From contig JABCZC010000013.1 in the NCBI GenBank assembly GCA_013289875.1, positions 7,069-71,068 on the forward strand: a stretch of DNA of 64,000 nucleotides. The letters are read 5' to 3'. The DNA is from Acidobacteriota bacterium. Its GTDB lineage: Bacteria > Acidobacteriota > Terriglobia > Terriglobales > Acidobacteriaceae. The translations under genes and the position numbers were made by a program. Under the pieces are notes generated by a model. It saw only the letters and a list, made by a program, of their open reading frames with translations. It was not told the DNA's origin and made no database searches. Shown piece by piece: positions 1 through 24,643 of this stretch. Every line of letters starts with the position of its first letter. The stretch's first letter is position 1.

Positions 1-3000
1 ACAGGGGCTGCATTTTGGAGCGATGGTACAGGTATTTCCTGCGAAGTCTTGCGCGCAAGGCCATCTCCGGCATGCGCTTGTGCTGAGCCGCCAGTTCGGC
101 GGCGTACCCGGGACGCCAGGAGTCAAAGAGAACGACCATGGCGACCTCTTCCCCGTCCTCAATCAGATGCCTTGCCGTTTCGACGGCAAGCGGGCCGGCG
201 GCGCACCATCCGCCGATGTAGTAAGGGCCTGTGGGCTGGACCGAGCGTATCTCCTTTGCGTAAGAGGCAATGCGATCCCCGATGGACATCGATTGGTTCA
301 GCTCACGCAGGCCGTAGAAGGGGCGATCCTCGCCCAAAGCTCCCGGCAGGCCTCCGTACAGGAGGTAGGAATGGATAAGGAAAAACGGCGGCCTGGAGCC
401 CCGGGGCTGTACGGGCACCAGCGGAGAGTAAAGGGTGCGGCCGCGGATGATGTCCGCGAGCTGCTCGATGGTAGGCGCGTTGAAGATGGTGGTAATCGGC
501 AGAGACACCGACAGCGCGCGATTGATGTTTGCGAAGAGCCTGACAATCATCAGGGAGTAGCCGCCCAGCGTGAAGAAGTTGGTGCGGATGCCGATGCCGT
601 GCACGCCCAGAATGGATTCCCAGATCGAAACCAGCCTGGTTTCAAGTTCGTCGCGAGGAGGAACGAAGCCGGCTTCCCTGACCATGGCAGACGAAGATAA
701 TCCTGGAGACGGAAGCGCTGCGAGGTCAGCTGAACCGTCGAGGCGGCGAGGGATGGAAGCGACCGCAATTACCTCAGCCAAGGCCAAGTGCTGAGGTCCA
801 GCTGACTTGAGCCAGGCGCTGACGGTGGAGATTGACGGATGACCTCCATTCTTGCCTGCGATGTAGGCTATGAGCACCGGCTTGGCGCTCGCGTCGTGCT
901 GAATGGCGGCCTCCGCAAGAGCCACGGAAGGCTCCTGCATGAGCAGGTCTTCGAGGTCGCCGAGGCGCAGGCGGTAGCCGTGGAGGCGGGCGGAGCGCCC
1001 GGCCTGCTCGATGATTTCAAATCCCCGGTCAGGCGAGTAACGAGCGACATAGCCGGGACGGAACTCAGCGGAATCTCGCTGAACGATGAGCTCGCCCGGA
1101 ACGGCAAAGGGGACGGGGCTGCCCCACGCGTCAAGAATGCGCAAGCTGTCGCCCGGAAGTGGAGCGAGCGGCCACTGCACGTGCTGTGAAGGCTGGGGTG
1201 AGGTATCGAGGCGCGCGACCGCGAACGGGCCCGCCGTAGCCGCCGATGAAAGCATCGACCATACGCGGCAGGGAGATTTGGCGAGCTGATCGGCAATGAC
1301 AGAGGACACTCGCGATCCACGGCAGATCAGGTTTATTCTGCGATCGCCGAGCCAACCACTTCCAAGGAGGTGAGACCATTCGGCCGGGGTGCCGAGAGCA
1401 AACGAAATCTGTTCGCGATCGAGTAGCGCCTGCACCTCCCCGGGAGTGGTTTCTCCGGGATAGACGATGGTTGTGCCGGAAAGCAATGGAAGCAGGAGAT
1501 CGGTCCAGGCGTCGGTCATCGCGAGTGGTGACAAAGCGGTTGCCGGAAAGACGAGCACGGCATCGCCCGCACCGAGGTCCAGAGCCTGGGCCGCGCTCTG
1601 CATGCTTCTTATGGTGGCGGCATGGGATACAGGAATGCTTTCGTAACTGCCATCTGCACTTATTTTTGCGCCTAGCCAGGATACGTCTACCGCAGTGGGA
1701 TGCAGTACATTGGCAGGCGCTGAGGATTCGGCATCCAACTGCTCAAAAGCGGTTACAGAAGAGAACTTCTCAGCGAAACTCCGTGCGGCCAGGGATAACG
1801 ACGGCTGGAATTCTGCCCGGATCGTCTGCCACTCCGCGGAACTGACGCTGGCGGGCACGGGCAGGACGACCGCGCCCAGGCGCAAAGCGGCGATGGCGGC
1901 AGCGGCTGAGTCTACAGTAGGCTCGATACGCACAGCGACGGTTTTATCGGGGCCGAGGCCCAGAGTCTCCAGAGCACGCGCGAAGCGAAGGCTTCGCCTC
2001 TGTAGATCGCTCCAGCTGATGCGTGATTCTCCGACGATAAGCGCTGCGGAGTCTCCGCGTGCTTCAGCCTGCAGGTCGAAGCACTGCGAGAGCGAGGCGA
2101 GTACAGGCTGAGCTTCAAATTTCTCGCTGAAGACGGGATTTGGAGTGGGGCTCAAAGCCGGACCGGCGCCCGCGAGGTTCAGGGTCGATTGCTCCTCCGG
2201 AGAGAGCAGAGGAAGCTCGGAAACGGCGAGGGTGTCGTCGTCCATAACCGCCTCAAGAATGCGGGTGTACTGATCGAGCAGGCGACGGATGCGCTCGCGC
2301 CGGAAGAGGACGGTGTTGTACTCGATCTGCAAGCGCGGACCCTCGGCGCGCTCGACGATGCTGACCAGCATGTCGAAGTTCACGCCGCCGCTCACCGAAG
2401 GCCGCGGCTGGATGCGCAGGCTCCCGGCGGTCTGCGGCTGCATGAAGGCCTTCTGGTAGACGAAGTAGACTTGCAGAAACTGCGAGGTTGCGCCCGCCTG
2501 GTCGAGTTGAAACTCCTCGGTGAGGCGCGAGAAGGGAAGATCCTGGTGCGCGTAGGATTTTGCGCTCCAGTCGACGACCCGGCCGAGCAACTGCCGGTAG
2601 CTGGGATTGCCGCGGACGTCGGCAAGGATGACCTGGGGGTGCGCAAAACGGCCGATCACATTTTCCATGCCCGGTTGCGTGCGGTTGGCGATCGTCGATC
2701 CCAGCAGGAATTCTGTCTGGTCGGCATAACGGGAAATGAGTGCCTCAAAGGCCGCCAGCAGGAGTTGGTGCATGGTGGCGTCATGCTGACGGCAGTATGC
2801 CTTGAGGCGCGCGGTGAGGGCCGGCGACAGGAGGTGCCCCTCGATGTCGCCAGGAAAACTCTTTTGTGCGGAGCGGGGGAAATCAGTCGGCAGGTCGATG
2901 GCCGGCAGATCGCGCTGAATGTGTTCCTTCCAGTAGGCGAGCGCCGCCTGGGCAGCTTCACTCTCCAGCCAGGACTGCTGCCAGACAGTGAAGTCAGCGA

Positions 3001-3577
3001 ATTGAAAAGGCAGTTCGGGCAGAGTGGGTTCTCGCTTCTGCGCGGCAGCCTCATAGAAAGCCGCGAAGTCGCGCACGAGAATGCCGTTCGACCATCCGTC
3101 GCAGGCAATGTGATGCACCGTGAAGGCAAGGAAGTGATCGCTGTCAGTAACGTGAATAAGGTGAACGAAGAACGCTGGTCCGGCCGCAAGATTGATGTGA
3201 ATCCGGCTGTGCTCGTGGATGAGTTCCTCTGCTTTTTCGAGCCGCGAGTTCTCGGGCAATCCGCGAAGATCGGAAACGGTGAAGCTGTAGACCGGCTCCT
3301 CAGATATGACCTGGGAGAGGGCCTCGTCAATCATGCGGAAGGTGGTGCGCAGCGCCTCGTGACGCAGCACGAGCTCCCGAACACAGTGCTGTGCCAAAGC
3401 ATCGTCAATGGGACCGTCGAGGCGAAAGGCGACCGCCATGTTCGAGGCCGTTGACGCGTCCGCGAGCTGATCGAGAAGCCAGTAACGGCTTTGCTCCAGG
3501 CCGGCGGGGAAAACATAGACCCCATCGAGACGCAACTTATCGGACACCTGCTCATCGGCGGTGTGCGGGTCTTCCAT
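1..3577 (-). CDS. NRPS terminal module, C - degenerate A - T - TE (C-terminus runs off the window edge)
   Basis: Absent from the ORF track because no stop lies inside the window. My hand translation of the reverse strand from ATG 3577 (in-frame alternative ATG 3619) stays open for 1192 codons down to nt 2. Motifs read: HHIACDGWS (condensation), FFTLGGYSL (carrier), PFFLIHS...GGWCAAG (thioesterase). Confidence 0.85.
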   Translation of the reverse strand, partial: MEDPHTADEQVSDKLRLDGVYVFPAGLEQSRYWLLDQLADASTASNMAVAFRLDGPIDDALAQHCVRELVLRHEALRTTFRMIDEALSQVISEEPVYSFTVSDLRGLPENSRLEKAEELIHEHSRIHINLAAGPAFFVHLIHVTDSDHFLAFTVHHIACDGWSNGILVRDFAAFYEAAAQKREPTLPELPFQFADFTVWQQSWLESEAAQAALAYWKEHIQRDLPAIDLPTDFPRSAQKSFPGDIEGHLLSPALTARLKAYCRQHDATMHQLLLAAFEALISRYADQTEFLLGSTIANRTQPGMENVIGRFAHPQVILADVRGNPSYRQLLGRVVDWSAKSYAHQDLPFSRLTEEFQLDQAGATSQFLQVYFVYQKAFMQPQTAGSLRIQPRPSVSGGVNFDMLVSIVERAEGPRLQIEYNTVLFRRERIRRLLDQYTRILEAVMDDDTLAVSELPLLSPEEQSTLNLAGAGPALSPTPNPVFSEKFEAQPVLASLSQCFDLQAEARGDSAALIVGESRISWSDLQRRSLRFARALETLGLGPDKTVAVRIEPTVDSAAAAIAALRLGAVVLPVPASVSSAEWQTIRAEFQPSLSLAARSFAEKFSSVTAFEQLDAESSAPANVLHPTAVDVSWLGAKISADGSYESIPVSHAATIRSMQSAAQALDLGAGDAVLVFPATALSPLAMTDAWTDLLLPLLSGTTIVYPGETTPGEVQALLDREQISFALGTPAEWSHLLGSGWLGDRRINLICRGSRVSSVIADQLAKSPCRVWSMLSSAATAGPFAVARLDTSPQPSQHVQWPLAPLPGDSLRILDAWGSPVPFAVPGELIVQRDSAEFRPGYVARYSPDRGFEIIEQAGRSARLHGYRLRLGDLEDLLMQEPSVALAEAAIQHDASAKPVLIAYIAGKNGGHPSISTVSAWLKSAGPQHLALAEVIAVASIPRRLDGSADLAALPSPGLSSSAMVREAGFVPPRDELETRLVSIWESILGVHGIGIRTNFFTLGGYSLMIVRLFANINRALSVSLPITTIFNAPTIEQLADIIRGRTLYSPLVPVQPRGSRPPFFLIHSYLLYGGLPGALGEDRPFYGLRELNQSMSIGDRIASYAKEIRSVQPTGPYYIGGWCAAGPLAVETARHLIEDGEEVAMVVLFDSWRPGYAAELAAQHKRMPEMALRARLRRKYLYHRSKMQPL
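2..406 (-). other. Type I thioesterase domain (partial) with Cys at the nucleophile position
   Basis: PFFLIHSY oxyanion-region motif, then IGGWCAAG where GxSxG is expected. The Cys codon tgc is at nt 203-205 (plus-strand gca). Confidence 0.7.
443..664 (-). other. Thiolation (PCP) domain of terminal NRPS
   Basis: FFTLGGYSLMIV with the phosphopantetheine Ser at aa 1008 (nt 554-556). Confidence 0.8.
713..2110 (-). other. Adenylation-fold domain with eroded catalytic cores
   Basis: A1/A2-like ISWSDL and LRLGAVVLP, and A8-like GRSARLHGYRLRLGDLE, are present. There is no TSGSTGxPKG P-loop, no YGPTE, no Y(R/K)TGD, and the A10 NGKxDR reads DGSADL. Confidence 0.7.
2213..3535 (-). other. Condensation (C) domain of terminal NRPS
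   Basis: HHxxxDG core read as HHIACDGWS at aa 155-163 of the hand translation. Boundaries approximate. Confidence 0.8.
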
Positions 3578-3691
3578 GTTCACGCTTTGTACGATATCAC
3601 CAGAGTAAGGTCGTATCATGCGAGCAGAGCCACGGCGAGTATGAGCCGATGTTACCGCAAGGAACCGGCAATCGATCAGTGTTACTGCAAG

Positions 3692-6600
3692 TTACTGCAA
3701 CACAGTGCGTGGTCTGCGATGCAGCGAGCGGGGTACTGGCTGGATCGTTCCACTGGTTGATTCGGCGGAGTGTTCGCCAGGATTCTCCTGAACCTGTGCG
3801 CAGATCGCCGAGATGGTCTTGTACTGAAAGATATGCCGAGCCGTAATTTTTATTCCCGCCTGATTGGCGAGCGTGTTGATACGGAAAATCATCAGCGAAT
3901 CGCCGCCTAACTCAAAGATACTATCTTCGACGCTAACCTCCTTAAGGCTTAGAGCATTCGACCAGATGAGGGCAAGTGTTTCTTCCAGCGGATTGCGCGG
4001 ATAGACGATCGAGCGCTCACGCATGAGCTGCTCGGGTTGGGGCGCGGGAAGCGCACGGCGGTCGATTTTACCGTTAACCGTGCGGGGAAAGCTCTCCACA
4101 GCCATGATCGCCGCGGGCTGCATGTAATCGGGCAGCTGGGTTCTGAGCCAGGCACGAAGTTCGGCGGCCAGGCTCGTTGTATCGCCAGGCTGGGCTGGGA
4201 TGATATACGCGGCGAGTCGTTTGTCTCCGGGGGCGTCGTGCGCGGTGACCCAATCAGTGCGCACGCAGGCGACGGCGGAGCGGACCAGCGGCGAACGCTC
4301 GAGCGCGTATTCGATTTCGGCAAGCTCGATGCGATAGCCGCGGACCTTGACCTGTGTGTCGGCGCGACCGAGGAATTCTACGGTGCCGTCGGCTCGATAG
4401 CGGGCCAGGTCGCCGGTGCGATAGAGGCGCTCAGTGAGTCCTGGCGCGAACGTGTGGTGAATGAATTTCTCGGCGGTGAGCTCGGGCGCGTTCAGATAGC
4501 CGAGCGCTATTCCATCGCCGGCCGCGAAGAGCTCTCCGGTGACGCCGATGGGCACAGGCTGCATGGCGGCGTCGACGATGTAGATGCGAGTGTTGGCGAT
4601 GGGACGGCCGATGGGCACCATTCCAGACGCCAAGCTGTCGAGCGAGATGGTGTGGCAGCAAGTGAAGGTCGTGTTCTCGGTAGGTCCGTAGCCGTTGATT
4701 AGGCGAAGGTGGGGCAGCTCTTCGACAACGCGCCGGACATGAGTGACGGAGAGCACATCTCCGCCGGCTAGCAACTGGTGCAGCGGGCGGAGCGTCTCGA
4801 TATGAGTCGTCGCGATGAGATGGAAGAGCGCGGCGGTGAGCCAGAGCGTGGTGACGTTGTATTGCTGGATGAGCGCGCCGATATCCTCCGGGGTTACGCG
4901 GCCGGCAGGGGCGAGAACCAGACGGCCTCCGTTGAGCAGGGCACCCCAGATCTCGAAGGTAGCAGCGTCGAATGACAGAGGAGCAAGCTGCAGGAAAACT
5001 TCGCCGGCGGAGAAGCTGGCGAAGGAATTGTTCTTGACCAGACGCAGAACGGCACGGTGCGGCACGAGCACACCTTTGGGATTGCCCGTAGAGCCGGAGG
5101 TGTACATCACGTAGGCCAGATCGTCGGGGCCGGGCGCGGGGGCGAGATTTCTGCTCGACTCGATCGCGATGGCTGGCCAGTCGGCGTCGAGACAGATGAC
5201 GTTTGTGGCGAGCTGGGGCAAAGTTGCGGCGATGGAACGCTGGGTGAGCAGCGCCTGCGCTTGCGAATCGTGGATGAGGAAGCTGAGTCGCGAGGCCGGA
5301 TAAGTGGGGTCGACGGGCACATAGGCGGCGCCTGCTTTAAGGATTGCCAGCAGACCCACAACAACTTCGAGCGAGCGGTCGAGACAGAGGGCCACGCGGG
5401 CTCCGGGCTTTACGCCAGAGCTTTCAAGGAAATACGCCAGCTGGTTGGCTTTCTCGTTCAACTCGGCATAGGTGAGAGACCGGTCGCCGGCGGTGACGGA
5501 GACGGCTTCAGGAGTGCGTTCGGCCTGCTCCTCAAAGACGCGGTGAATCGAACTTTCGCGGGGATAGACGGTCGCCGTCTGGTTCCAGTCGATAAGCAGT
5601 TGCTGCTTCTGCGCTGCAGTGAGCAGTGAGACCTGTCCGGCGGTCTGCTCGGCGTCGTCCACGAAGGCCTGAAGGATGGCCTCGATGTGGCCGCACCAGC
5701 GCTCGATGGTCGATTCGTCGAAGAGGCCGGTGTTGTAATCGCAGTCGAGCCAAAGCTCGCTGCCACGATCGATGAAGTTGAAGAAGAGGTCCATGTTGAC
5801 ATGGGTCTTCGCGTTTGCGCTGAGGTCGACGGAGAGGCCGTCGAACTTCAGGCCGGCGCCGACCTGCTCGACATTGAACTGCACTTCGACAAGCGGCAGC
5901 CGCGAAGACTCGCGCTGAATCTTGAGCCTGCGCAGAAGCGTCCCGTAGGTGTAGTCCTGATGATCCTGCGCGTCGAGCAGCTTTTTGCGGGCCTGCTTGA
6001 AGAATTCCGAGAGCGGCTGATCGGCCTGGAAGCTGCTGCGGATGGGCAGGAAGTTGACGCAGTGCCCGACCAGCGTCGTGCCATTTTCTAGAATGGACTG
6101 GCCGGCCATGGGGATGCCGATGACCACGTCATCCTGCTGCGAGAGGCGGTGGATGAGCTGCGAAAAGCCTGCCAGTAGAGTGGCGAACAGCGTGCTGCCC
6201 TGCTTTGCGCCGGCCTTCTTGACGGCCTTTAGGAATTCAGGCGGAAAGATGAACCGTTTGGTTGCGCCTTCATTGCTGCGCATGGCTGGCCGCGGCCTGT
6301 CCGTGGGCAGTTGCAGCGCCGAGGGCATGGTCTTGAATTCGTTGAGCCAGTAGGCTTCGACCTCGGAGTTTTCCTGCGACTCGTGACGCGCGTTCTGTTC
6401 GATCGCGTATTGGCTGAAGTTGAGAGGCGCGGGCAGCGATGCGGCTTTTCCGGAGACGGCAGCGCTGTAGAGTTCACCGAGTTCCGAGTAGAGGACGTTC
6501 GTGGACCATCCGTCGAAGATGATGTGGTGTGCGCTGAAGAGACGCCCGTGTTCGCTTGGCGCGAGGCGGACGAGACGCATGCGGAAAAGCGGGCCGCGGT

Positions 6601-9600
6601 GAAGATCGAAGGGCGTGGATGCCTGCTGCGCGATCAGAGTCCTGAGCTGTTCGTCGCGGCCTTCTGTCGAGAGCGTGCTGAGGTCGTCGTTCTCCAGCGG
6701 CAATGGGACGTGAGCCGCGATGTGTACGGTATCTCCGTTTTCGAGGATGGTGGAGCGAAGGGCCTCATGGCGCGCGACGAGTTGTTCCAGGCTGCGGATG
6801 AGCGTGGCTTCGTCGAGCGGGCCGTTCAGGCGGAGAGAGGTCGATTCGTTGAAAGCGCAGTTGGCCTCGTCGCCGAGCTGCGTTCCGAAGAGGATTTCGC
6901 GCTGCGGCTCGGTGATGGCGATGTCGCGGTCGGCCGGGGCAATGGCCTCGACGGGTTCAGGAGCGGAAACCGGCGTTGTGGGCGCGGGCTGTACGGCTGC
7001 TTCTGCATGGCCGATCGCCTGGCCGGCCTGCATCTGGCGAAGGCTGGTGCGGAAGGCTTCGCGCACGAAGTCGAGGTCCGCATCGGTGTGCGCCGTGGTG
7101 AGGAAGCAGGGAAATCCCTCCTGAATGTGGATGCCCTGCTCGCGGAGGTGGTAATAAAGCAGGCGCGCCAGCTTCGGTTCGGCTGCGGCGCTCATGTAGA
7201 ACCACGACGAGAAGGTTTCGATGACCGAATGGTAGGAGAAGTCTCGGAACAAGGCGTTCAGATCCGTAACCAGCGACGTAGTCTTCGCGGTGAGATCCGT
7301 TTGCAGCGAAGGGCCGGAGCTCTTGATGTGCTCAAGGCTGGCGCGGACCGCTGCCAGAGCGAGCGGATGGCGCATGAAGGTCCCGGCGTAGAACGTGACG
7401 CCGACCTGCGGGAAGGAGTCGTCGCCATACTGCCACGCTCCGCCGTCGAGGGCGTCCATGTAGGTGGGGCTGCCGGCGAGGACACCGACCGGGAGTCCGC
7501 CCGCAACGACTTTTCCGTAGGTCGCGAGGTCGGCACGAATATCGTAAAGGGCTTGCATGCCGCCGGAGTGGGTGCGGAAGCCGGTGACTACTTCGTCGAA
7601 GATGAGGCAGGAGCCGCTCAGTTGCGTGATGCGGCGAACCTCACGCAGAAATTCGACTGGACGAAGCTCGGGATGGCGGCTTTGAACAGGCTCGACCAGC
7701 ACGGCGGCGATTTCGTCGGCGCGCTGGCGAATGACTTCGAGGCTTTCCGGCGAGCCATAGTCGAGCACAAGGATGTTGGCTACGCTTTCGCGGGGAATGC
7801 CGGGCGCAACCGGCATGGAGCGGCGGTTGCCGACAGACTTGACCAGCACTTCGTCGAAGCTGCCGTGATAATCGCCGGTGAAGAGCACAACAAGATTGCG
7901 GCCGGTGACGGTGCGCGCCAGGCGCATGGCTCCCATCACAGCTTCGGACCCGGTGTTGCAGAAGGTGACGCGCTGCATGCCGGTGAGCTCGCTGATGAGC
8001 TCGGCGCAGACGCCGGAAAGCTCAGTTTGGGGGCCGATGGCGAATCCCAGGTCAAGCTGCTTGCGCACGGCGTCGACCACAAAGTCGGGCGAGTGACCGT
8101 AGAGGATAGCACCGTAGCCGTTGAGGATATCGACGTAGCGATTGCCGTCGTTGTCCCAGAGATAAGCTCCGGCGGCGCGATCGACGACCAGCGGATAGAC
8201 GAGCTCCTTGGTTTGCGCGTTGAAGCCGGAAACGACACGGCCATCGGCGAAGACGCCGCGGTGGTCCTGGGTAAATTTCTTCGAGCCCTGAGTGCGCGAG
8301 GCGTAGCTCTGGACCAGATTCTTGAGGTAGGTCTCCTGCACGGGATTCAGGCCGGCGGCCTCACCACGCTGCACGGGTTTGAAGGGCGTAAAGGCAGGCT
8401 TGGACGTCTTTGTCTCGGCGACGGGTGCAGGTGGCAGGGCTTGAGAAGCTGCAGTAGCAATTGTATCTGCGATTGTTACCGATTGTGATGGAGACGGTGG
8501 AATTGTAACTGTCGATGATACAGAAGCGACAGGAGCTGCCGGTTGACCGCGCAGAAATTCCATCTGCTGGTTGAACAGCGCGGTGAGTGCCTGCATCTGG
8601 CTGGCGAAGAGAGCTTCGTAGGAGCCCGGTGCCGTTGTGGTTGCCGAAATTGAAGGCGCCGTGGCTGGAGCGGGTGCTGTGGCAATGACTTGAGTGGCTG
8701 CGGGGACTGCAGGTGCTGGTGTGGATGCAACCGGGGCAGCGCTGCGTAGTTCGGGGGCGACCGTGGCATCGAGATGCGCGGCCAGTGTGCCCAGCGTGGG
8801 ATAGCTTTCCATGATTTGCCGGAAGGTGAGCTTGACGCGGAATTTGCTCTGAATGCCCTGAGTCAGCTGGGTGAGGAAAAGTGAGTCGAAGCCGAGCTCG
8901 AGGAAAGAGGCATCCGCCTCGGCGTCGGCGAGATCCGTCCCGGAAAGATCGGTGATAAGTGCTTTGAGTTCCGAAAGCATAGTGTCGTTGTGTGCGACAG
9001 AAGGCGTAGCCATGATTGAAACCTCAGCAGGCAGCACAGATGCCTGGTTGGTGTTGGGCGTGTTTGCCGGGGACACAGCGATAACTGGCGGGTCGGGCTG
9101 CGCCGGCATCGACGCAGCAGGCGCGTCGACCCAATGCCTGTGGCGCTCGAATGGATATGTTGGCAGAAGGGCACGTTTGCGGCTGTAGCCTGCGTGGAAT
9201 GCTGTCCAGTCAGGATTGGCTCCCAGGGTCCAGAGAAGGCCGAGCGCGGAGAGAAGCGCGCCGTCCTCGGGTTCGGCAGCGCGCGCGGAACCCAGCGACG
9301 ATAGCGTTGCCGGCGTCCAGGAGCTGGCTTTGGCGATCTGGCGGATGAGCGGGACAAGCGTCTCGGAGGGTCCAATTTCGAGCATGATGCGCTCGGGGGT
9401 GTGGATAATTTCGCGGACTGCGTCGGCGAAGCGAACGCTGTGGCGAAGCTGCCGGGTCCAGTACTCGGGGTCGGCGACTTCAGAGGCGGTGATCCATTTG
9501 CCGGTGAGGGTCGAAACATAAGGAGTCGACGGGGCAGCGAAGTTTATGCTGCGAATGACTTCGGCGAACGGAGCCAGCGCGGGTTCGACCATGCTGCTGT

Positions 9601-12217: not shown

Positions 12218-12243
12218 GCATGGGGGAGACGAGGTGCTGGATT

Positions 12244-14514: not shown

Positions 14515-14558
14515 CGCGTCCAGCGGCGAAGCCTAGGAATGCAGAACTTTCCTTGTGG

Positions 14559-15626
14559 CTAAAAAGCGCCCCCCGCAAGGCCCAGGCTCAATAAGCTGGT
14601 CATGGGGCTGATCTGGCGCAGGAAATAAGTCACCTTATAGAAACCACTCTGAGGAATAATGATCACGTCGCCCGGCTTAAGGCTGACCTCTGATATGCCA
14701 CCAGGGGTCATCAGCTGCTTCCAGCGGATGACTCTGGATGTATTGGAGGACTTCTCGATGATCGTTACATTGGGCGAAGTTCCGGCGCCCTCTGCCAATC
14801 CCCCGGCCTGAGCCAGGACGGAGGGTAATGTGGATTCCGGCGTGAGCGGAATGGCGCCCGGTGACTTTACTTCGCCGAGCACGGTGACGAACAGATCGGC
14901 TTGCGAAGGTATAAAAATGATGTCGTTGCGGCGCAATCGTATATCCGCCGTGGCGCTGCCGCTGCGCAACAACGCCCTCAAATCGACCTCAAGCACTTGA
15001 TCGTTGCCGCGATAGATCATGCAGCGATCGGGCAGGCCGTCTTTGTTTGAGGGGGTGGCCTGAAGCCCTCCGCGGGAGACGGCATCGAGCAGAGTCGGCG
15101 CCGTGTCGAAATAGAGCACTCCCGGATGCTGTACATTGCCCAGAACAGTGACTCGGTTGGAGCCGTACTTCTCGATGTTGACGGTAACGGTGAGATTTGT
15201 GTAATCCGCCGAGAGAGCATCGATGATGGCTTTGGCGGCGGCTGGGCGGGTCAGATTTGCCACAAGCAATGGTCCGGCAATGGGCAGTGTAATCCGCCCG
15301 TCGGGGCCGATCGTGTACTTCCTCGAAAGTTCGGGTCTGCCGGGAAAGTCCAGGCTGATCTCGTCACCTGCGCCAAGCTGGTATTCTTCGTCGGCCGGGG
15401 GCTCAAAGTTCTGGAGTTGCTTTTCGGGACTCAGCTTGAGCTGTGGCACCTTGGCCACTTGATCCGGAGGGGGGACAGCCGACGGCCCCTGTTGCGCCAG
15501 CAACGGGAACGCTCCCAGGCCCAAGACCAGACCGATGCTTGCCACCCGAGTTGACCAATCTGCGAATCTCATAACATGCCAGACCTTTCGATAAATCTCC
15601 ACGCCTGCACGAGCTCCAGGTTTCAA
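14559..15626 (-). CDS. wza: Polysaccharide export outer-membrane protein (Wza family)
   Basis: Signal-like N-terminus, YQLGAGDEISLDFPGRPELSRKYTIGPDGRITLP Poly_export-type motif and SLBB-like repeats. Alternative start at 15572. Confidence 0.85.
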   Translation of the reverse strand: MKPGARAGVEIYRKVWHVMRFADWSTRVASIGLVLGLGAFPLLAQQGPSAVPPPDQVAKVPQLKLSPEKQLQNFEPPADEEYQLGAGDEISLDFPGRPELSRKYTIGPDGRITLPIAGPLLVANLTRPAAAKAIIDALSADYTNLTVTVNIEKYGSNRVTVLGNVQHPGVLYFDTAPTLLDAVSRGGLQATPSNKDGLPDRCMIYRGNDQVLEVDLRALLRSGSATADIRLRRNDIIFIPSQADLFVTVLGEVKSPGAIPLTPESTLPSVLAQAGGLAEGAGTSPNVTIIEKSSNTSRVIRWKQLMTPGGISEVSLKPGDVIIIPQSGFYKVTYFLRQISPMTSLLSLGLAGGAF

Positions 15627-15659
15627 ACCAATATCCCCATCATGCCTTGAACCCGAAAT

Positions 15660-16862
15660 CTAGGAAATACTCCTAAAGTTGGAGTCCCGATTGGTGCGAA
15701 CCCACTCAGCCTTGCCCCTCGATCCGAGCAGAACCGCAGGGAGCAGACGCAGCTTCCACAAGATATAGAGCGGCGCCGTGGCCAGCACACCCAGCGTCCG
15801 CAGAAAGTTCGGTCCGCTCGCCGCTGCGGCCAGCACATGGGCCGCAATCACTAGGAGCGAAGCGATGGCGTAGATGCGAATCCCGGCTATTGGCACGCAA
15901 AGGGCGAGCAGCAGGGCAAAGACCCCGTAAGCCATCGGCAGACCGGCCACATCGAAGAGCGGTTCGGCCACGCGGAGGCGTCCACGCAGAAGCTGCCCAA
16001 GTAGGGGACCCGTCCAGACTCGGGCAGCATGAAATCTGCCGCCCTCCCAGCGTGCGCGCTGAACCTGCTCACCCTCTCGTGAAGCGGGAAGTGTGGCCGA
16101 AACAAGGGCAGTCTCAAGGAAGCGCACCCTTTTCTCCGCCAGCACCATGGTGATGTGATACTCCAGATCTTCGACGATCGAAAACGCGCCGTAAGGTACC
16201 TGGTTCAGGAGGTTGCGGCTGAGAGCGAAACCATTGCCGAAAATACCTGCGGAGAGACCCAGTCTTTCCCGTCCGCGCGGACGAATGATGTTAAATCCAC
16301 GCAGCGCAAGAGCCGCGAGCCGGGCGTTGATCTTCTCCGTGGGGCTCTCCATCTCATAACGGCATTGCACCGCTTCGGCGCCATTGGCTAGAAGGTGCTG
16401 AACGGCCGGAACCAGATTCTTCGACACGATCGAATCCGCGTCGACGACCAGAATCGCCTTCGCCTGCCCGGCCAGCGCCCGCTCGAAGCCGTGACGAAGG
16501 GCGAAACCCTTTCCCTTCGCCGCCGGATCGTCGTAGATCAGGACCTCGGCTCCGGCCCTGCTCGCCTGCTGGGCGGTGCTATCGGTGGAGTTGTGGGCGA
16601 CCACGAAAATGCTGATGTCGGATTTCGCAGTGCACTGGGCGGCAGATTCGCGCACGCTCCTGACGCAGCGGGAGATCAGAAACTCCTCATTGTGCGCCGG
16701 TATCACGATGGCAAGAGGAAATCCTTCCGCTGGCTCGCTCTCCTCCGATTGTCGGCGCGCGGGCAGCAAGGCGGCGGCTGTCAACAGAGCCAGTTCCAGA
16801 ACGAGAGGCAAGGTGATGGCCAGGAGCGCCAGGCCGAGAATCAGGTAGAAGTAAAATGCCAT
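15660..16862 (-). CDS. Membrane-embedded processive family-2 glycosyltransferase (synthase type)
   Basis: AIVIPAHNEE, VVDADS, IVEDLE (TED-like) and QRARW (Q(Q/R)xRW) motifs flanked by N- and C-terminal TM helices. Confidence 0.85.
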   Translation of the reverse strand: MAFYFYLILGLALLAITLPLVLELALLTAAALLPARRQSEESEPAEGFPLAIVIPAHNEEFLISRCVRSVRESAAQCTAKSDISIFVVAHNSTDSTAQQASRAGAEVLIYDDPAAKGKGFALRHGFERALAGQAKAILVVDADSIVSKNLVPAVQHLLANGAEAVQCRYEMESPTEKINARLAALALRGFNIIRPRGRERLGLSAGIFGNGFALSRNLLNQVPYGAFSIVEDLEYHITMVLAEKRVRFLETALVSATLPASREGEQVQRARWEGGRFHAARVWTGPLLGQLLRGRLRVAEPLFDVAGLPMAYGVFALLLALCVPIAGIRIYAIASLLVIAAHVLAAAASGPNFLRTLGVLATAPLYILWKLRLLPAVLLGSRGKAEWVRTNRDSNFRSIS

Positions 16863-16978
16863 GCGGAAGACGCGCCTCTCAATAGATGACCAAGCAAGTA
16901 TCTGCCGGTACGCAAAACGGACCGGAGTAAATTGTGGGACCGCGACCGTAGGGCTACGGTCCGCCCTGCCCTACGGCT

Positions 16979-18292
16979 CTATCCAACCGAAACTTTGAAT
17001 CCGTAACGGGATGCCTGACTGAAACCGGTCCCAAAATCGAGCTGCTGGCCCTGGCCGCCAGCGGCCATCCTCTGACAAACATCCTGCATGACTTCCACGC
17101 GGATCTGCACCGGGGCGCCGGTCTTCCGGCGAAATGTCTGGATACCCGGCACCTGCGGCAGAGGGCGCAGATCGGTTTTGGCGATTCTGTAAAGAGCGTC
17201 GCTTACGCTCGAAGTCGTCTTGAAGTAGCTGTCCAGCCGCGAGCTGCGCAGCAGACGAACTAGGTGGGGACGCATTTCCGCCAGCCAGAGCTGCAGCTTC
17301 AGTCGTTGCATCGACGTCATAAGGTGAACGAGCGAGCCGAGCGTATTGGGTCCAAAATAGGCGCTTTCGGCCATATTCAGCACAATGTGCTTACCCGACT
17401 CGCTGGCAACCCGGGTATATCTCTCAAATTCCGCGAGCAGCCGGCCGGTGAGATTCCCCTGGATGGTAATGACCTCAGTGTCCCCAACCCTGGTGCTGAA
17501 AACCTTGGAGGGGCCATTCTTTCTTGGCTGTGTAGCGGTCGCTGCCATCTGCTGCGGCAAGTAGCGGCCGAGCGTGAAGGCGTCGCTGATATACCTGCCC
17601 AATAGCCGCCGGGGTTCCTGGGCGGCGCGGAAAAACCACTCCATGCCGCTCTTCTGCATCCAGCGCGGGGCGCGTGTAAGCTTGCCCGCGATCATATCGA
17701 GCGAGCCTCCGATGCCGATCGAGACCGGCACTCTCAGGCGATCGCGGTGCATCGAGAGCCACTTCTCCTGCTTGGGATTACCGAAGGCGACCAGCAGAAT
17801 GTCCGGCCGGGCCAACTCGATGCGACGAAGGATCTCTTCGTGATTCATCTCTTCGAGCGGACGAACGGGCGGAGAGTAGCGACCGACAATGCGCAGTCCC
17901 GGATAGCGCTCCTGCAACAGCTCCGAGGCGCGTTGCGAGCTCTTTTCGCCGGCTCCGAGCAGGTAGACGCGATAACCGCGCCGCGCCGCCAGCTCAGCCA
18001 GGCGGGGCACCAGGTCAATACCGCATACGCGCTCTTTCAGTCTGGAGCCCATCAGGCGGGCGGACCACAGGATGGGCATCCCATCCGGGACCACCAGCGA
18101 ACAGGAGCAGAGAATGTTCTGCAACTCCTGGTCGTGAATGGCGTGCATCAGAAAATCCACGTTGGCCGTGGCTACCTGGTGGAAGCCGCCCTCGTCGATT
18201 TTTTGCTCGATGATCGCCACGGCCTCTTCCATTGTGACATTGTTAAATGGCACACCCAGAACAGCTACGGAATTTGGACTTATACCAGGCAT
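16979..18292 (-). CDS. WecG/TagA/CpsF-family glycosyltransferase fused to a C-terminal STAS domain
   Basis: VLGVPFNNVTMEEAV...VATANVDFLM...VVPDGMPILW is the TagA/WecG signature. Residues 304-412 (nt 17180-17506) read as STAS (EVITIQGNLTG...IVLNMAESAYFGPNTLGSLV). The ORF is open to 18415, but Met42 (18292) has a GAGGA Shine-Dalgarno and avoids overlap with the upstream gene. Confidence 0.8.
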   Translation of the reverse strand: MPGISPNSVAVLGVPFNNVTMEEAVAIIEQKIDEGGFHQVATANVDFLMHAIHDQELQNILCSCSLVVPDGMPILWSARLMGSRLKERVCGIDLVPRLAELAARRGYRVYLLGAGEKSSQRASELLQERYPGLRIVGRYSPPVRPLEEMNHEEILRRIELARPDILLVAFGNPKQEKWLSMHRDRLRVPVSIGIGGSLDMIAGKLTRAPRWMQKSGMEWFFRAAQEPRRLLGRYISDAFTLGRYLPQQMAATATQPRKNGPSKVFSTRVGDTEVITIQGNLTGRLLAEFERYTRVASESGKHIVLNMAESAYFGPNTLGSLVHLMTSMQRLKLQLWLAEMRPHLVRLLRSSRLDSYFKTTSSVSDALYRIAKTDLRPLPQVPGIQTFRRKTGAPVQIRVEVMQDVCQRMAAGGQGQQLDFGTGFSQASRYGFKVSVG

Positions 18293-18395
18293 AATTGCGA
18301 AATCCTCAAAGCTTTCAATTGGTGCATCGTTTAAAACTCGGGGGAGCCGAGAGGTCTCAAAGGCGACCCAACCTTTCCTTCTCAAAACAAACGGC

Positions 18396-19058
18396 TTACA
18401 TGTGCGGGGATCCATTCCCCAGGATTTGCATACGGGCGCTGCCTGCCCGCGAGGGGACCCGGGCGGGCATTTCGATTACCTCGCAGGCACCCGATTCCAG
18501 ACTGTGGCGCCGGTCTCCATACGAAATATCCGCGGCTTCGATCGGGCTTACGTCGTCCCGGGCGACTTCGACAGCGATGGCCTGGCCAACCGATGCAACG
18601 CAGATCACCAGCCGCAGTGCGTTTGCCGTGTGTACCAGCCGCCCTTCGAGGCCGGCGAGAGGCCCGCGTTGAATGCGCAGCAGCGTGCCTGTGGCCAGGT
18701 AGGGATGGCGTGTGCAGCGCGCACCGCTGTTCAATGACTGGCGCAAAGATTCAATTTCAAGCTCGGGCACCGCTTCCGGTTGGCCCAGGTTGCCAAGTAG
18801 CCTGACAACGCCGGTGGTTTCCAGCACACGTACGCGGTTGCTAAGGGTGGGTTCAAATCGGGCAAAGAGGTATCCGCCGAAGGCCGGTACGTTCATGGAC
18901 TTTTTCCGATCCTTCCACTCATGGACCTCGCTCAAGGTCGGCAGATAGTTCTCCAATCCTTTAGCGGTCAGGTCATTCGCGATACGCTGCTCGTAGCGAT
19001 AGCGTGTTTGAATCGCGAACCATTGAGTCCGGGTTATGTGTGAAAGTTCCATGGTCAT
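18396..19058 (-). CDS. NusG paralog (UpxY/RfaH/LoaP-like specialised antiterminator)
   Basis: NGN-type start WFAIQTRYRYE...PAFGGYLFARF...VVRLLG and a KOW-like GTLLRIQRGPLAGLEGRLV. It sits at the head of a long co-directional gene train. Confidence 0.8.
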   Translation of the reverse strand: MTMELSHITRTQWFAIQTRYRYEQRIANDLTAKGLENYLPTLSEVHEWKDRKKSMNVPAFGGYLFARFEPTLSNRVRVLETTGVVRLLGNLGQPEAVPELEIESLRQSLNSGARCTRHPYLATGTLLRIQRGPLAGLEGRLVHTANALRLVICVASVGQAIAVEVARDDVSPIEAADISYGDRRHSLESGACEVIEMPARVPSRAGSARMQILGNGSPHM

Positions 19059-19190
19059 CTCGACAATTTCACTGAAGTTGCTGGGGCTTCGCCCATGCCA
19101 GTCGCGAAGGCCGGGATAATAGCTGGTACCAGGGGCGAGACATCGTTAAGCAATAGGGTCGGCAGCAAAAAAAATTCAGTGATTCGACTT

Positions 19191-19454
19191 CTACTTCAAA
19201 ATTTCCTGAGGCTTCGCTTCATTGGAGAAGCTCTCGTCGTTGACCTGCACTCTGTAAAAGAGCCACTCCGGGTCGCTATGTAAAATCGTTGCAATCTGTT
19301 CTCGAATGTCTCCGCTTGGTTGACGGAATCCATTGATGATCCTGCTGAGGTGGGCTTCATCGATGCCGAGCATTCTCGCCAGCCGATTCTGGCGAATCCC
19401 GGTGGTGTAAATTCGCAATTTCAGGTTCGGATAGATCTCTCGACCAAGGCTCAA
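19191..19454 (-). CDS. Small XRE-family helix-turn-helix regulator
   Basis: IRQNRLARMLGIDEAHLSRIINGFRQPS is an HTH_3-type motif. The track ORF extends to 19574, but that extension contains the sigma-54 promoter. TTG 19454 is preceded by AAGGG and gives an 87-aa protein. Confidence 0.65.
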   Translation of the reverse strand: MSLGREIYPNLKLRIYTTGIRQNRLARMLGIDEAHLSRIINGFRQPSGDIREQIATILHSDPEWLFYRVQVNDESFSNEAKPQEILK

Positions 19455-19531
19455 TGTCTTACCCTTAATGTGTGTGGACTTCTGCCGGTTACTGACGGGC
19501 CATGCCAAAACAGCGACACACTCCCGGTAAA

Positions 19532-19547
19532 TGCAATCAGGGTGCCA
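19532..19547 (-). promoter_or_regulatory. Sigma-54 (-24/-12) promoter
   Basis: Reverse strand reads TGGCACCCTGATTGCA, matching TGGCAC-N5-TTGCA with correct GG-N10-GC spacing. It faces the XRE/NusG/EPS genes, and a sigma-54 activator gene lies divergently about 350 bp away. Confidence 0.65.
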
Positions 19548-19899
19548 AACGGTATTCGGCCCGTTTGACAACATATTGTTGATCTGTCCAGGAATTGGGG
19601 GTGTTTGGAAGTCCCAATTAGTCTCCAGAGTTCCGAAAAAGTTTGAACGGTGGAGAAAAGTCCGACGAGAAGGGTTGTCGTTGGGAGTGGATTTGTGGGT
19701 GCCGAAGGTAACTTGGTTATGGGTACCTGACCGGGGTCAATTCTCGGCTATTGGTAATTCCCACGAAAGTGGTTTTGCTCACTCACCGGCTAAGCGCTAT
19801 GATCCGCTTACTTAGAGTTGTCGTGCCATGCAAGCCGATGATGTTTTGCTGTGCTGCCTCTTTCTCTCTTAATCTCTCGATTCCTGCGTGGAGTGCCTA

Positions 19900-21327
19900 A
19901 TGTCCGGTCTAATTCTGTTGATTGGCGAGAGTCCGCAAGCTCATGAGCCGCTGATTCAGAACCTGAAGTGTCACGGATACAGCGTGCTCCCGGTAAGGAC
20001 TTTGCCGGAGGCCCTTCTGCATCTTCGCAACCCGGCTTTTACGGTAGCGGCAGTTATTTCCAATGTGGGCATGCGTCGTCAGCAGGACCTGGACACCATT
20101 CTCGAAATATGTGCGTCGCGACCACATCTACCTTTGATCCTTGCCGTGAACGAGCTGCATGAGCTGCACCGCGAATTTCGCACTTCCGTCCGCGGCCTTC
20201 ATATATTGAAAACGCCGCTTGCACACCAGGATTCCTACCGCGCCATCCGCGAGGTAATTGATTCGGCCCGCTTTTCTCTGAACCAGGACAGGGATCTGGA
20301 TCCCGACCTGCCGACGCGGGTTCTGGCCGCCGACGTATCTGGCGCCGTGGTGCAGCATTATTCCGAGTCGTTCCTGTCCCGCGTGGGCATGGCCGACGTT
20401 CCTGTGCTGTTGCATGGGGAAACCGGGGTGGGGAAGGAGGTCATGGCGCGCCGCTTGTGTGCTTACTCTTCTCGCGCTAACAAGCCTTTTTTGAAATTGA
20501 ATTGCGCGGCGCTGCCTTCCGAACTGATCGAGAGCGAGTTGTTCGGGTACGAGAAGGGTGCTTTTACGGGCGCAACGATCGACAAGCCGGGCAAATTTGA
20601 GCTTGCCCAGGGAGGAACCATTCTGCTGGACGAGATCGGCGACATGGATATCCGTCTCCAGGCAAAGCTTCTCCAGGTGCTGCAGGATGGCGAAGTGCAG
20701 CCGCTGGGCAGCCGGCGCATCGTGAAGGTGGACGCTCGGGTGATGGCGGCCACGCACCGTGATCTGCGCAAAGGGATCGAAGAGGGAGCATTTCGCGAAG
20801 ATCTTTACTACCGCCTCAACGTCATCAATATTGTGATTCCGCCCTTGCGCGAACGTCCGCAGGAGATTATTCCCCTGGCAGAGACGCTGCTGCACCGGCA
20901 CTTGCCGCCTGGTGCGACCGCTCCGGTTCTTACCAGGGAACTGCAATCCGCGATGCTCGAATACAACTGGCCTGGCAATGTACGCGAAGTCGAAAATGTG
21001 ATGCGCCGCTATCTGGTCTACCAGGACGCGGACTTACTGATTCAAGAGTTGGTGCGCCTTAACTCAGCTACCGCTGCGCCAGCCGAAAGGGCTCCAGAGC
21101 AAAGCCATGCCAACGGGAAGAACGGAAAAGTTGTGACCATGGACCACCTGGAGCAGAATTCGCGTGAGGCGGAGACGAAGCTGCTTCTCGACGCGCTGAG
21201 TGCCACCCGATGGAACCGGCGGCAAGCGGCGGCACAACTAAATATCGATTACAAGGCCTTTCTCTACAAACTGCAGAAATATGGGATTGTTGAGACGAAG
21301 GCGAAGCGCGGGGAAATCGGCGCTTGA
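19900..21327 (+). CDS. Sigma-54-dependent transcriptional activator (bEBP) with a pseudo-receiver N-domain
   Basis: AAA+ motifs GETGVGKE and ESELFGYEKGAFTGA, plus a C-terminal Fis-type HTH (WNRRQAAAQLNIDYKAFLYKL). ATG 19900 has GGAG 6 nt upstream (the track starts at GTG 19888). Confidence 0.9.
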   Translation: MSGLILLIGESPQAHEPLIQNLKCHGYSVLPVRTLPEALLHLRNPAFTVAAVISNVGMRRQQDLDTILEICASRPHLPLILAVNELHELHREFRTSVRGLHILKTPLAHQDSYRAIREVIDSARFSLNQDRDLDPDLPTRVLAADVSGAVVQHYSESFLSRVGMADVPVLLHGETGVGKEVMARRLCAYSSRANKPFLKLNCAALPSELIESELFGYEKGAFTGATIDKPGKFELAQGGTILLDEIGDMDIRLQAKLLQVLQDGEVQPLGSRRIVKVDARVMAATHRDLRKGIEEGAFREDLYYRLNVINIVIPPLRERPQEIIPLAETLLHRHLPPGATAPVLTRELQSAMLEYNWPGNVREVENVMRRYLVYQDADLLIQELVRLNSATAAPAERAPEQSHANGKNGKVVTMDHLEQNSREAETKLLLDALSATRWNRRQAAAQLNIDYKAFLYKLQKYGIVETKAKRGEIGA

Positions 21328-21385: not shown

Positions 21386-21943
21386 TTGTTTGAGAATCTA
21401 CGTGAGGATTTTCGCACGTATGACTACCAGTGGTCCCGTCAGGGCCTCTGGCTCATGGTGGTCTACCGCTTTGGACGATGGCGTTATACCATCCGCCGGC
21501 GGTGGATGCGGCTCCCGTTCTCCTTTCTCTATAAAGTGCTGAAGCCATTTTCCGAGATCCTCACGGGTATCGAATTGCCTTGCGAAGCGACCATTGGCAG
21601 ACGCTTCCGCATCGACCATTTCGGCGGCATCGTGATCAGCGGAGATGCGGTGTTCGGCGATGACTGCGTGATTCGCAACGGAGTCACCGTGGGATTGCGG
21701 CATGCGGGTGTTCGCGGCGCACCGATTTTCGGCAACCGCGTGGATGTCGGCGCCGGCGCAAAGATACTTGGAGCGATTCGCATCGGCGACGATGTCGTGA
21801 TCGGAGCCAATGCCGTCGTCCTCAGAGATGTGCCCGCGAATTCCGTTGCCGTGGGCGTTCCTGCACGAATTTTGCCCCGCAAACTTCAGGAACTCGCCAC
21901 CGAGCCAATTGCCGACGACGGAATTCTCGAGGCGCAGGTATGA
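21386..21943 (+). CDS. Hexapeptide-repeat O-acetyltransferase (serine acetyltransferase-like)
   Basis: Left-handed beta-helix repeats (IGRRFRIDHFGGIVISGDAVFGDDCVIRNGVTVG...VGAGAKILGAIRIGDDVVIGANAVV). TTG start with GAGGAG 6 nt upstream. Confidence 0.85.
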   Translation: MFENLREDFRTYDYQWSRQGLWLMVVYRFGRWRYTIRRRWMRLPFSFLYKVLKPFSEILTGIELPCEATIGRRFRIDHFGGIVISGDAVFGDDCVIRNGVTVGLRHAGVRGAPIFGNRVDVGAGAKILGAIRIGDDVVIGANAVVLRDVPANSVAVGVPARILPRKLQELATEPIADDGILEAQV

Positions 21944-24512: not shown

Positions 24513-24643
24513 ATGTAGAAACACACCCGGTCGCCGCCGCCAAGCACACAAAAGTGGTGATTCTTCCTGCAGGGCTTTCAGGTACCATTTGATTGGAATT
24601 TTGTTCCGCCACTGTTCACTCCAGAACCTAGCGACTCCCAAAA

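Follow-up and report, generated by a model that had tools for sequence, protein, structure and literature searches.

The stretch of DNA analysed here (the window) comprises 64,000 nt of contig JABCZC010000013.1 from an Acidobacteriota bacterium of the family Acidobacteriaceae. Its left part carries a minus-strand train of genes: an XRE-family regulator, a NusG paralog and genes for exopolysaccharide (EPS) synthesis and export, followed by a hybrid polyketide synthase-nonribosomal peptide synthetase (PKS-NRPS) and a terminal NRPS (NRPS2). A sigma-54 activator gene, encoding a bacterial enhancer-binding protein (bEBP), is divergent from the train. We found that this arrangement recurs in related genomes as a constant polysaccharide core with optional genes at both ends.

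Results

Layout of the gene train

The train was identified gene by gene through Pfam and NCBIfam profile searches of the window open reading frames (ORFs). The gene content, order and strand proposed earlier from the letters alone (the sequence-only reading) were all recovered (Table 1). Translation starts were set from gene calls on near-identical metagenome contigs and from N-terminal conservation. The XRE gene starts with the TTG at 19454, behind an AAGGGT ribosome-binding site, and conservation begins at that codon; the longer ORF (19191-19574, 127 aa) is spurious, as it begins upstream of the promoter with its ATG inside the palindrome CAACAATATGTTG. The WecG/TagA-STAS gene starts at 18292 (longest ORF 16979-18415), 103 nt from the NusG gene and without overlap. 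The Wza start is at 15572 or 15602 (longest ORF to 15626; gap 87 or 57 nt) and the Wzc-like start at 14454 (longest ORF to 14514; gap 104 nt). The corrected gaps, 5' to 3', are 132, 103, 116, 57-87, 104, 26 and 114 nt. The values of 132, 116, 26 and 114 nt stand as first given, whereas a NusG-TagA overlap and gaps of 33 and 44 nt had resulted from the choice of start.

None of the train gaps holds a terminator-like site; such sites were not above shuffles (17 found against 15.6 expected), and the gaps fold no better than their own shuffles (z -1.2 to +2.0). Terminator scan and folding thus bear out the initial impression that the gaps hold no convincing terminator. The NusG-TagA spacer has one weak 5-bp hairpin with U4 (18351-18333), and conservation does not extend to its U-tract. 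A C-rich motif, CTCCCCC(G)A, is repeated on the minus strand between XRE and NusG (~19125-19135), in the NusG-TagA hairpin (18337-18351) and before the PKS (12220-12230); a related ATCCCCC directly follows the promoter in XRE-less loci. This motif could pair with GGAG-type ribosome-binding sites.

Table 1. Features of the locus, numbered from the first letter of the window
Feature	Position	Strand	Basis or remark
NRPS2, C-A*-T-TE	1..3577	-	Pfam Condensation, weak split AMP-binding, PP-binding, Thioesterase; cut at window edge
PKS-NRPS, 2841 aa, T(PCP-type)-KS-AT-ACP-aminotransferase-C-A-T	3692..12217	-	Pfam and motifs
wzc-PKS junction, 26 nt	12218..12243	-	No Shine-Dalgarno, no fold
Wzc-like co-polymerase, 736 aa, degenerate P-loop domain	12244..14454	-	Weak matches far under NCBIfam cutoffs
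Wza-like outer-membrane polysaccharide export protein	14559..15572	-	Poly_export and SLBB above cutoffs
Membrane family 2 glycosyltransferase (GT2), synthase-like	15660..16862	-	Glyco_tranf_2_3 / Glyco_trans_2_3
WecG/TagA glycosyltransferase-STAS fusion	16979..18292	-	PF03808 204.6 bits, PF01740
UpxY-family NusG paralog, 220 aa, NGN + KOW + disordered tail	18396..19058	-	NF033644
Leader element GCGACTGGCATGGGCGAAGCCCC	19083..19105	-	Conserved at the equivalent place in ~30 loci
XRE-family HTH regulator, 87 aa, TTG start	19191..19454	-	HTH_3
Sigma-54 -24/-12 element TGGCACcctgaTTGCA	19532..19547	-	Exact match; conserved in ~40 loci
Palindrome CAACAATATGTTG, candidate XRE operator	19569..19581	-	Co-occurs with XRE
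Inverted repeat GGTACC-N9-GTTACC, candidate activator-binding site	19707..19727		Four close relatives aligned
Sigma-54 activator (bEBP), divergent	19888..21327	+	PF00158 213.8 bits, HTH_8
Hexapeptide acyltransferase	21386..21943	+	Pfam; conserved divergent arm of core
Second GT2	22005..23024	+	Pfam; conserved divergent arm of core
Variable rest of glycan locus	23067..34760	both	Pfam; only partly common to relatives
In the domain strings: C, condensation; A, adenylation (A*, degenerate); T, carrier; PCP, peptidyl carrier protein; TE, thioesterase; KS, ketosynthase; AT, acyltransferase; ACP, acyl carrier protein.

Recurrence and modular anatomy of the locus

One genome per species was scanned with an alignment of the Wzc-like protein, and synteny was read by tblastn. 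This gave 43 loci (numbered with the prefix L), nearly all from Acidobacteriaceae. The same gene order is present in ~25 Acidobacteriaceae species, including the isolates Silvibacterium bohemicum S15, S. dinghuense, Paracidobacterium acidisoli 4G-K13 and ZG23-2 (complete genome). The wzc-PKS adjacency, which might have been unique to this one genome, is found in ~25 species-level genomes. Core operon copies also occur in metagenome-assembled genomes (MAGs) labelled Acetobacteraceae or Alphaproteobacteria (L071, L073, L084), which would reflect either horizontal transfer or mis-binning.

The loci have an invariant core. It consists of the divergent arm (bEBP, hexapeptide acyltransferase, second GT2), the sigma-54 promoter, and the run WecG/TagA-STAS, GT2, Wza and Wzc-like; the acyltransferase and second GT2 of the divergent arm are present in nearly all related loci. 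Three parts are facultative: the XRE gene with its palindrome, the UpxY-family NusG paralog, and a cassette made of the PKS-NRPS, the NRPS and an Sfp-type phosphopantetheinyl transferase (PPTase). PKS-less loci have unrelated genes after wzc.

Counting the window, 20 loci carry both PKS and NusG, six carry PKS without NusG, two carry NusG without PKS, and 12 have neither. NusG and PKS are therefore associated (20/6 against 2/12, Fisher p = 2e-4), although the loci are not phylogenetically independent. The co-occurrence of the paralog with the wzc-PKS adjacency, a check that had been suggested at the outset, holds as an association and breaks down as a rule, given the six PKS+ NusG- and two PKS- NusG+ loci: the PKS-bearing form does not require the NusG paralog, nor does the paralog suffice for it. 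With an XRE-to-TagA spacer of ~215 nt, the six PKS+ NusG- loci cannot accommodate a NusG gene there. All PKS+ loci, in contrast, carry the XRE gene, and the deep PKS- group lacks it; XRE, at the far 5' end of the operon, co-varies with the cassette at its 3' end (26/3 against 0/11).

Identities to the window proteins drop in step for Wzc and PKS (93/88, 81/79, 70/72 and 60/63 %), which argues for long co-inheritance. In a neighbour-joining tree of the Wzc-like proteins, made without support values, loci lacking XRE, NusG and PKS form the base, followed by a clade with XRE and PKS and no NusG, and then by a large clade with all three in which the window lies. Inside the large clade, PKS was lost in L047 and L054, NusG in L043 and both in L077. 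This order is suggestive of a gain of NusG after the gain of XRE and PKS. A late gain fits a processivity role, and it would rest on a single event.

The promoter region and the leader DNA

The element TGGCACcctgaTTGCA reads TGGCAC-N5-TTGCA, with GG and GC 10 nt apart, exactly as first reported. It is the sole exact match in 64 kb, a count that by itself is within chance. We accept it as the promoter because it sits between the divergent bEBP gene and the train and occupies the same place in ~40 related loci. A -24/-12 element of the form TGGC-N7-(A)TTGC(A/T) lies between the bEBP gene and the first downstream gene in every locus, ~75-80 nt before the XRE start or, in XRE-less loci, 260-400 nt before TagA. 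A divergent bEBP with GAFTGA always accompanies it. The assignment of the divergent gene as a sigma-54 activator is borne out by its Sigma54_activat (AAA+), AAA lid and HTH_8 domains, with GAFTGA at residue 224. Its N-terminal domain (19888-20350, plus strand) aligns with receivers; as LLIGES replaces the DD/E acidic-pocket motif, it looks like a pseudo-receiver. The inverted repeat GGTACC-N9-GTTACC, ~170 nt upstream of the promoter, is kept in the alignment of four close relatives only.

Across loci, the -24 element is preceded at a distance of 21-23 nt (21 nt in the window) by a 13-nt palindrome, CAACAAaATgTTG. The palindrome is present at that place in 30/30 XRE+ loci and in 0/9 XRE- loci. 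This co-occurrence makes the palindrome a likely XRE operator, and the XRE regulator is predicted to bind CAACAAAATGTTG. We also considered an IHF site, but the palindrome is a poor match to WATCAANNNNTTR, and its strict co-occurrence with XRE favours the operator.

A second conserved element lies in the leader, with the consensus TGGGACTGAC-N3-GGCGAAGCC. The ~30 loci that have it include loci without NusG or XRE, and its range extends from Acidobacteriaceae to an alphaproteobacterial MAG. Where NusG is present, the element precedes its start by 20-60 nt (25 nt in the window); in NusG-less loci it precedes TagA by 50-80 nt. In L043, NusG was removed by a deletion that starts inside this element. 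A complementary TCAGTC arm often precedes it (for example L062 5861-5891 and L084 6070-6100). The element has no Rfam match, RNAalifold gives just a 3-bp hairpin without covariation, and it is not upstream of the two other NusG-headed operons examined. By analogy with the Bacteroides opsX sites (PMC11685472), it is a candidate pause or recruitment site. Another motif found after the promoter within the clade, GGCATGGCCCATsAGTAACC, was rejected as an ops candidate because it is also present in the NusG-less L043 and L077.

The wzc-PKS junction

The gap between wzc and the PKS gene is 13-30 nt in 12 lineages (the window and 11 close relatives). The start context CATGCATGCC is conserved at these short junctions, which lack a Shine-Dalgarno sequence and do not fold, a combination that fits translational or transcriptional coupling. 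The wzc 3' end has no sigma-70-like match. More distant lineages have gaps of 39-145 nt, which often open with a stable hairpin, as in S. bohemicum (z = -3.35, followed by UUCUUCUU) and L041 (z = -3.2). Stable GC hairpins directly after the wzc stop were noted at L076 12224-12250 (then a U-rich tract), L061 12233-12255 and L041 16567-16600. Such hairpins in distant PKS+ NusG+ relatives could be attenuators that meter megasynthase expression. They do not appear to be retained terminators of an ancestral short operon, because PKS-less loci show no consistent hairpin after wzc. In three NusG-less lineages (L059, L081 and L060) the gap grows to 262, 366 and 633 nt and is non-coding, AT-richer and hairpin-bearing; no MbtH-like or other small gene is evident in the long gap of L060. 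Coupling thus seems tight in the clade of the window and may be looser or regulated elsewhere.

The long gaps and post-wzc hairpins raise the question of whether the cassette is an independent cluster that settled at a permissive site and has its own promoter, in the wzc 3' end or in the gap, so that co-expression with the EPS genes would not be obligatory. The cassette has also been lost separately from the core, which is retained in L047, L054 and L077, and it differs from the core in composition: the plus-strand GC skew is +0.10 to +0.18 over the megasynthase genes (1-12000) and ~0 over the EPS genes (12001-20000), and GC content is slightly higher across the megasynthase genes. These values are consistent with a compositionally distinct addition. 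Still, the cassette always lies directly after wzc and in the same orientation, in ~25 species whose Wzc identities span 55-93 %, and the 13-30 nt gap of 12 lineages is too short to hold an intergenic promoter. Neither a regulator nor an exporter belongs to the cassette, judged from the window and the downstream genes of relatives, and the covariation of XRE with the cassette is hard to explain without a regulatory link. We therefore regard independent expression as unlikely.

The NusG paralog

The NusG paralog scores 111.5 bits against the UpxY model NF033644 (cutoff 100), with residues 13-168 aligned to the 164-position model. It stays under the cutoffs of the RfaH models (TIGR01955, 66.1 against 144.5; NF006534, 40.9 against 124) and of the LoaP model (NF033641, 34.2 against 125), and it also fails the NusG model. 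Its description as a specialised paralog is upheld by these scores, and the family is UpxY. The NGN domain covers residues 12-106 (Pfam). An AlphaFold2 (AF2) model has the NGN domain, a beta-barrel KOW domain (strands 126-172) and a disordered 50-residue tail, with a mean pLDDT of 77.5, and Foldseek gave NusG and RfaH as the best structural matches of this model. RfaH is a stand-alone gene product with an alpha-helical, autoinhibited C-terminal domain, whereas the paralog here is encoded in the operon and its C-terminal domain is modelled as a beta-barrel, although AF2 cannot exclude fold switching. No UpxZ-type inhibitor gene follows; the next gene is WecG/TagA-STAS and the previous one XRE.

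Homologues annotated as UpxY family are found in Silvibacterium, Alloacidobacterium and other Acidobacteriaceae. The identical protein is encoded on at least 21 metagenome contigs with the same neighbours. Paralogs at 73, 67, 62 and 62 % identity, one of them from the S. dinghuense isolate genome, have the same gene order with a 2828-2836-aa PKS-NRPS after wzc. More distant paralogs, at 56 % (L042) and 47 % (L064), head other EPS operons, both without a PKS. In L042/L060 (one contig, CAWDNI010000044.1) and L064, this distant paralog heads a neighbouring EPS operon beyond the divergent arm, with genes for Bac_transf, an ABC transporter and Wzx. Such a nearby paralog could act in trans on NusG-less versions of the operon.

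The paralog could be a usual UpxY-type factor that serves the EPS genes, its link with the megasynthases being incidental. The distant paralogs that head different EPS operons speak for this, as do its retention in PKS- L047 and L054 and its absence from six PKS+ loci, and in published surveys most genes next to specialised NusG paralogs belong to polysaccharide pathways (PMC7819879). On the other hand, the deep PKS-less versions of the same operon (9-12 loci) are all without a cis NusG, and the tree puts the arrival of the paralog later than the 12-13 kb lengthening of the operon. An incidental link is a possibility to be kept in view, and on balance we doubt it.

The PKS-NRPS cassette

The PKS-NRPS has the motifs DNFFDSGGTSL in its N-terminal carrier, VQSACST in the KS, GHSVG and HAFH in the AT, and also HGTGT and HHxxxDG. 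The carrier motif is of the NRPS T-domain type, the KS active site VQSACST is of the hybrid-interface type, and the two AT motifs indicate malonyl. The aminotransferase is class III, and the A-domain code, extracted by hand, is roughly DAF(L)LGGTFK, which is Val-like. The domain order KS-AT-ACP-aminotransferase-C-A-T and the catalytic motifs agree with the beta-amino PKS-NRPS proposed before. The product had also been called lipopeptide-like, and this part was abandoned: neither a fatty-acyl-AMP ligase (FAAL) nor a starter C domain occurs in the glycan locus of the window or downstream in relatives, and the N-terminus is just an NRPS-type T domain. For this reason we describe the product as a short beta-amino-acyl peptide. 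It should be made with a single working A domain, predicted to be Val-like.

The terminal NRPS does have the C, A, T and TE domains ascribed to it, but its A domain (residues ~490-985) is degenerate, lacking the A3 P-loop, A5, the A7 Asp and the A10 Lys. The loss is common to 12/12 orthologues (the window and 11 at 51-87 % identity). The domain is probably kept for a non-catalytic role. In the yersiniabactin synthetase HMWP2 a single A domain loads several T domains, and by analogy one A domain may serve three carriers here.

NRPS2 is 1330-1336 aa long in relatives. Beyond position 1, relatives at 82-87 % have the NRPS remainder (1336 aa), the Sfp-type PPTase, a weakly PMT_2-like membrane protein and an Acyl_transf_3 protein. 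The PPTase is directly 3' of the NRPS in ~20/24 NRPS-centred loci, and on this basis we count it as part of the conserved cassette; in L013 the genes turn convergent after it. Exact-sequence look-ups of the Wzc-like and PKS-NRPS proteins gave no match (start choice or small differences).

A further possibility concerns what the cassette is for. The beta-amino-acyl peptide could be joined covalently to the polysaccharide or to a lipid-linked precursor, as a decoration, primer or anchor, and leave through Wza/Wzc, with the TE or C domain of the A*-containing module acting as the transferase. In the closest relatives glycan genes lie on both sides of the cassette, with a PMT_2-like GT-C and Acyl_transf_3 after the PPTase (L031, L011). 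There is no dedicated exporter for a free peptide among the cassette genes, a conserved non-catalytic A domain in the terminal module fits unusual off-loading, and the same EPS core exists in PKS+ and PKS- forms, as would be expected of an optional decoration. However, the TE looks like an ordinary type I thioesterase (Pfam), PMT_2 and AT3 are not conserved with the cassette past the closest relatives, exporters can lie elsewhere in a genome, and loading of several T domains by one A domain, as in HMWP2, explains A* without sugar transfer. Taken together, these points leave covalent coupling improbable as we see it. It would refine the function of the operon and does not contradict its joint expression.

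Polysaccharide proteins and flanking genes

The Wza-like protein matches PF02563 (68.5 bits), PF22461 (61.9) and PF10531 (55.4), each above cutoff. The membrane GT2 of the train has transmembrane segments at 1-36 and 301-354, and its QRARW at residue 268 corresponds to QxxRW of synthase-type GT2s, which makes it synthase-like. The label Wzc-like holds for the co-polymerase layout, with two hydrophobic segments (40-63 and 429-459) on either side of a large periplasmic domain and a weak EpsF chain-length-determinant alignment over 170-489. It does not extend to the kinase: SGAGTT stands for Walker A (no lysine), TIDASG for the Walker A' DxD, and the tail has one Tyr and no tyrosine cluster. These losses are the same in five orthologues, and the protein is far below the cutoff of all Wzc, EpsG and TyrKin models. 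It is probably a non-kinase (pseudo-kinase) co-polymerase. The WecG/TagA protein with a C-terminal STAS domain is an unusual fusion that is kept in the related loci examined; it hints at partner-switching or ligand control of the glycosyltransferase.

The glycan locus reaches to ~34.8 kb, where housekeeping genes begin. Its variable arm encodes, on the plus strand, a PAF-AH-like hydrolase, an FkbH-like protein, an 80-aa ORF, an FkbM methyltransferase and an 869-aa protein, and on the minus strand an Acyl_transf_3 protein and two Wzy_C-like proteins. The FkbH-like gene, the overlapping 80-aa ORF (a possible carrier protein, no Pfam match) and the FkbM-type gene lie at 24644-27713 (plus strand), and this trio suggests a glyceryl-type glycan modification. 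We rejected FkbH as a general supplier of starter units, since the trio is present in the closest relatives only and not wherever the PKS occurs. Further along, 42546-55147 (plus strand) holds an alternative complex III-like cluster (Fe-S protein, NrfD, cytochromes c), SCO1 and cytochrome c oxidase II, I and III, which is an ordinary respiratory context.

Discussion

In sum, the locus appears to be an old core polysaccharide unit that was lengthened at both ends, by the cassette at its 3' end and by XRE and NusG at its 5' end. For the lineage of the window, we consider it fairly probable that the whole train is a single sigma-54/bEBP-dependent message of ~21 kb, tuned by the XRE regulator and protected during elongation by NusG, and that its products are made jointly. 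The single transcript, the function of NusG, the pairing of XRE with the palindrome and the identity of the product are all inferred from sequence.

Based on these results, we propose the following model. Upon firing of the bEBP, sigma-54 polymerase would start near 19522. The XRE regulator would tune this promoter through the palindromic operator beside the -24 element. The NusG gene, which seems to have been inserted just downstream of the conserved leader element, would be translated from the same mRNA, and the paralog may then load on the elongating polymerase and suppress premature termination and polarity. In this way the ~21-kb message would reach the megasynthase genes, and the polysaccharide would be made together with a small peptide-polyketide.

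Several observations weigh against this model. Six PKS+ lineages have no NusG in the locus, and L047 and L054 keep NusG without PKS; thus, read-through is not strictly dependent on a cis-encoded paralog. The leader element occurs in NusG- loci as well, and we found none that is confined to NusG+ loci. The wzc-PKS gap spans 39-633 nt in the PKS+ clade without NusG, and several distant NusG+ lineages have hairpins after wzc, which makes an internal promoter or partial termination plausible in those lineages. The tree lacks support values, and two of its loci (L085 and L073) are oddly nested, so that the order of gains is suggestive only. Finally, acidobacterial promoters and terminators may not match the consensus scans used here.

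A stronger version of the model would combine both ends of the operon: the peptide would be joined to the polymer or to a lipid carrier through C-A*-T-TE, and NusG would have been recruited because the operon had grown by 12-13 kb. We hold this combination to be rather unlikely. If it were true, covalent coupling would define a new class, an exopolysaccharide decorated or primed by an assembly line. A cassette that lacks a regulator and an exporter of its own and is kept directly behind wza-wzc throughout a bacterial family points either to an obligatory partnership between the polymer and a peptide-polyketide or to a polymer modified by the assembly line. No description of either was found in the literature searched.

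Specialised NusG paralogs are thought to arise where long, hard-to-express operons need protection, and evidence for such recruitment is scarce. Here, natural variants of one operon cover all four combinations: the short and the long form, each with and without the paralog. Because several of these variants are present in cultured isolates, the recruitment idea is directly testable. The locus thus offers a natural system for studying the assembly of long mixed operons and the way in which they are read through. Acidobacteriaceae are plentiful in soil and peat, where exopolysaccharides are considered important for survival and for soil structure.

We found no published description of a conserved composite of polysaccharide, PKS-NRPS and NusG genes or of its stepwise assembly, and reviews of NusG are silent on it. 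The closest known systems each resemble a part of it. The UpxY/UpxZ capsule operons of Bacteroides are reportedly treated in work by Chatzidaki-Livanis from 2009/2010. Like them, the long polysaccharide operon here has, near its 5' end, a locus-specific UpxY paralog that presumably serves it, with a conserved leader element before the paralog (Saba et al. 2024, PMC11685472). The differences are that the promoter here is sigma-54/bEBP-dependent and theirs is invertible, that there is no UpxZ-like gene here, that the paralog here is the second gene, after XRE, and that the operon here adds PKS/NRPS genes.

NusG paralogs beside long megasynthase operons are known as LoaP (Bacillus velezensis dfn/mln) and TaA (Myxococcus xanthus TA), and they are presumed to give processive transcription (cited in PMC7819879 and PMC12691694). 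Unlike in those systems, the cargo here is mainly polysaccharide genes, and the paralog is dispensable in six PKS+ lineages.

Sigma-54/bEBP-controlled EPS loci include M. xanthus eps with EpsI/Nla24 and Burkholderia bep with BerB. As in those loci, an enhancer-binding protein and a -24/-12 promoter would drive an operon with Wza/Wzc-type export genes. Matches of the GT2 and WecG proteins to the EpsU and EpsA models of M. xanthus are weak, with all scores far under the equivalog cutoffs. To our knowledge, neither eps nor bep has an in-operon NusG paralog, an XRE regulator or megasynthases.

Beta-amino hybrid modules are known from MycA/ItuA (mycosubtilin, iturin) and McyE (microcystin). The PKS-NRPS here has their KS-AT-ACP-aminotransferase-C-A-T order and their hybrid-type KS. 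It differs in that it has no N-terminal FAAL, is followed by one further module with a degenerate A domain and lies inside an EPS operon.

Mixed glycosyltransferase (GT) and PKS/NRPS loci make mycobacterial glycopeptidolipids (GPL), heterocyst glycolipids and Nod factors (NodC with NodFE). There, as here, GTs are encoded with carrier-protein-based acyl or peptide synthesis, and in those loci this yields one conjugate. Their products are small glycoconjugates, exported by MmpL, DevBCA or NodIJ, whereas the partners here are a synthase-like GT2 and Wza/Wzc polymer export, and conjugation is hypothetical. The parts of this locus (a sigma-54-controlled EPS operon, a UpxY-type paralog and a beta-amino hybrid module) are each known individually, and here they stand together in one gene train.

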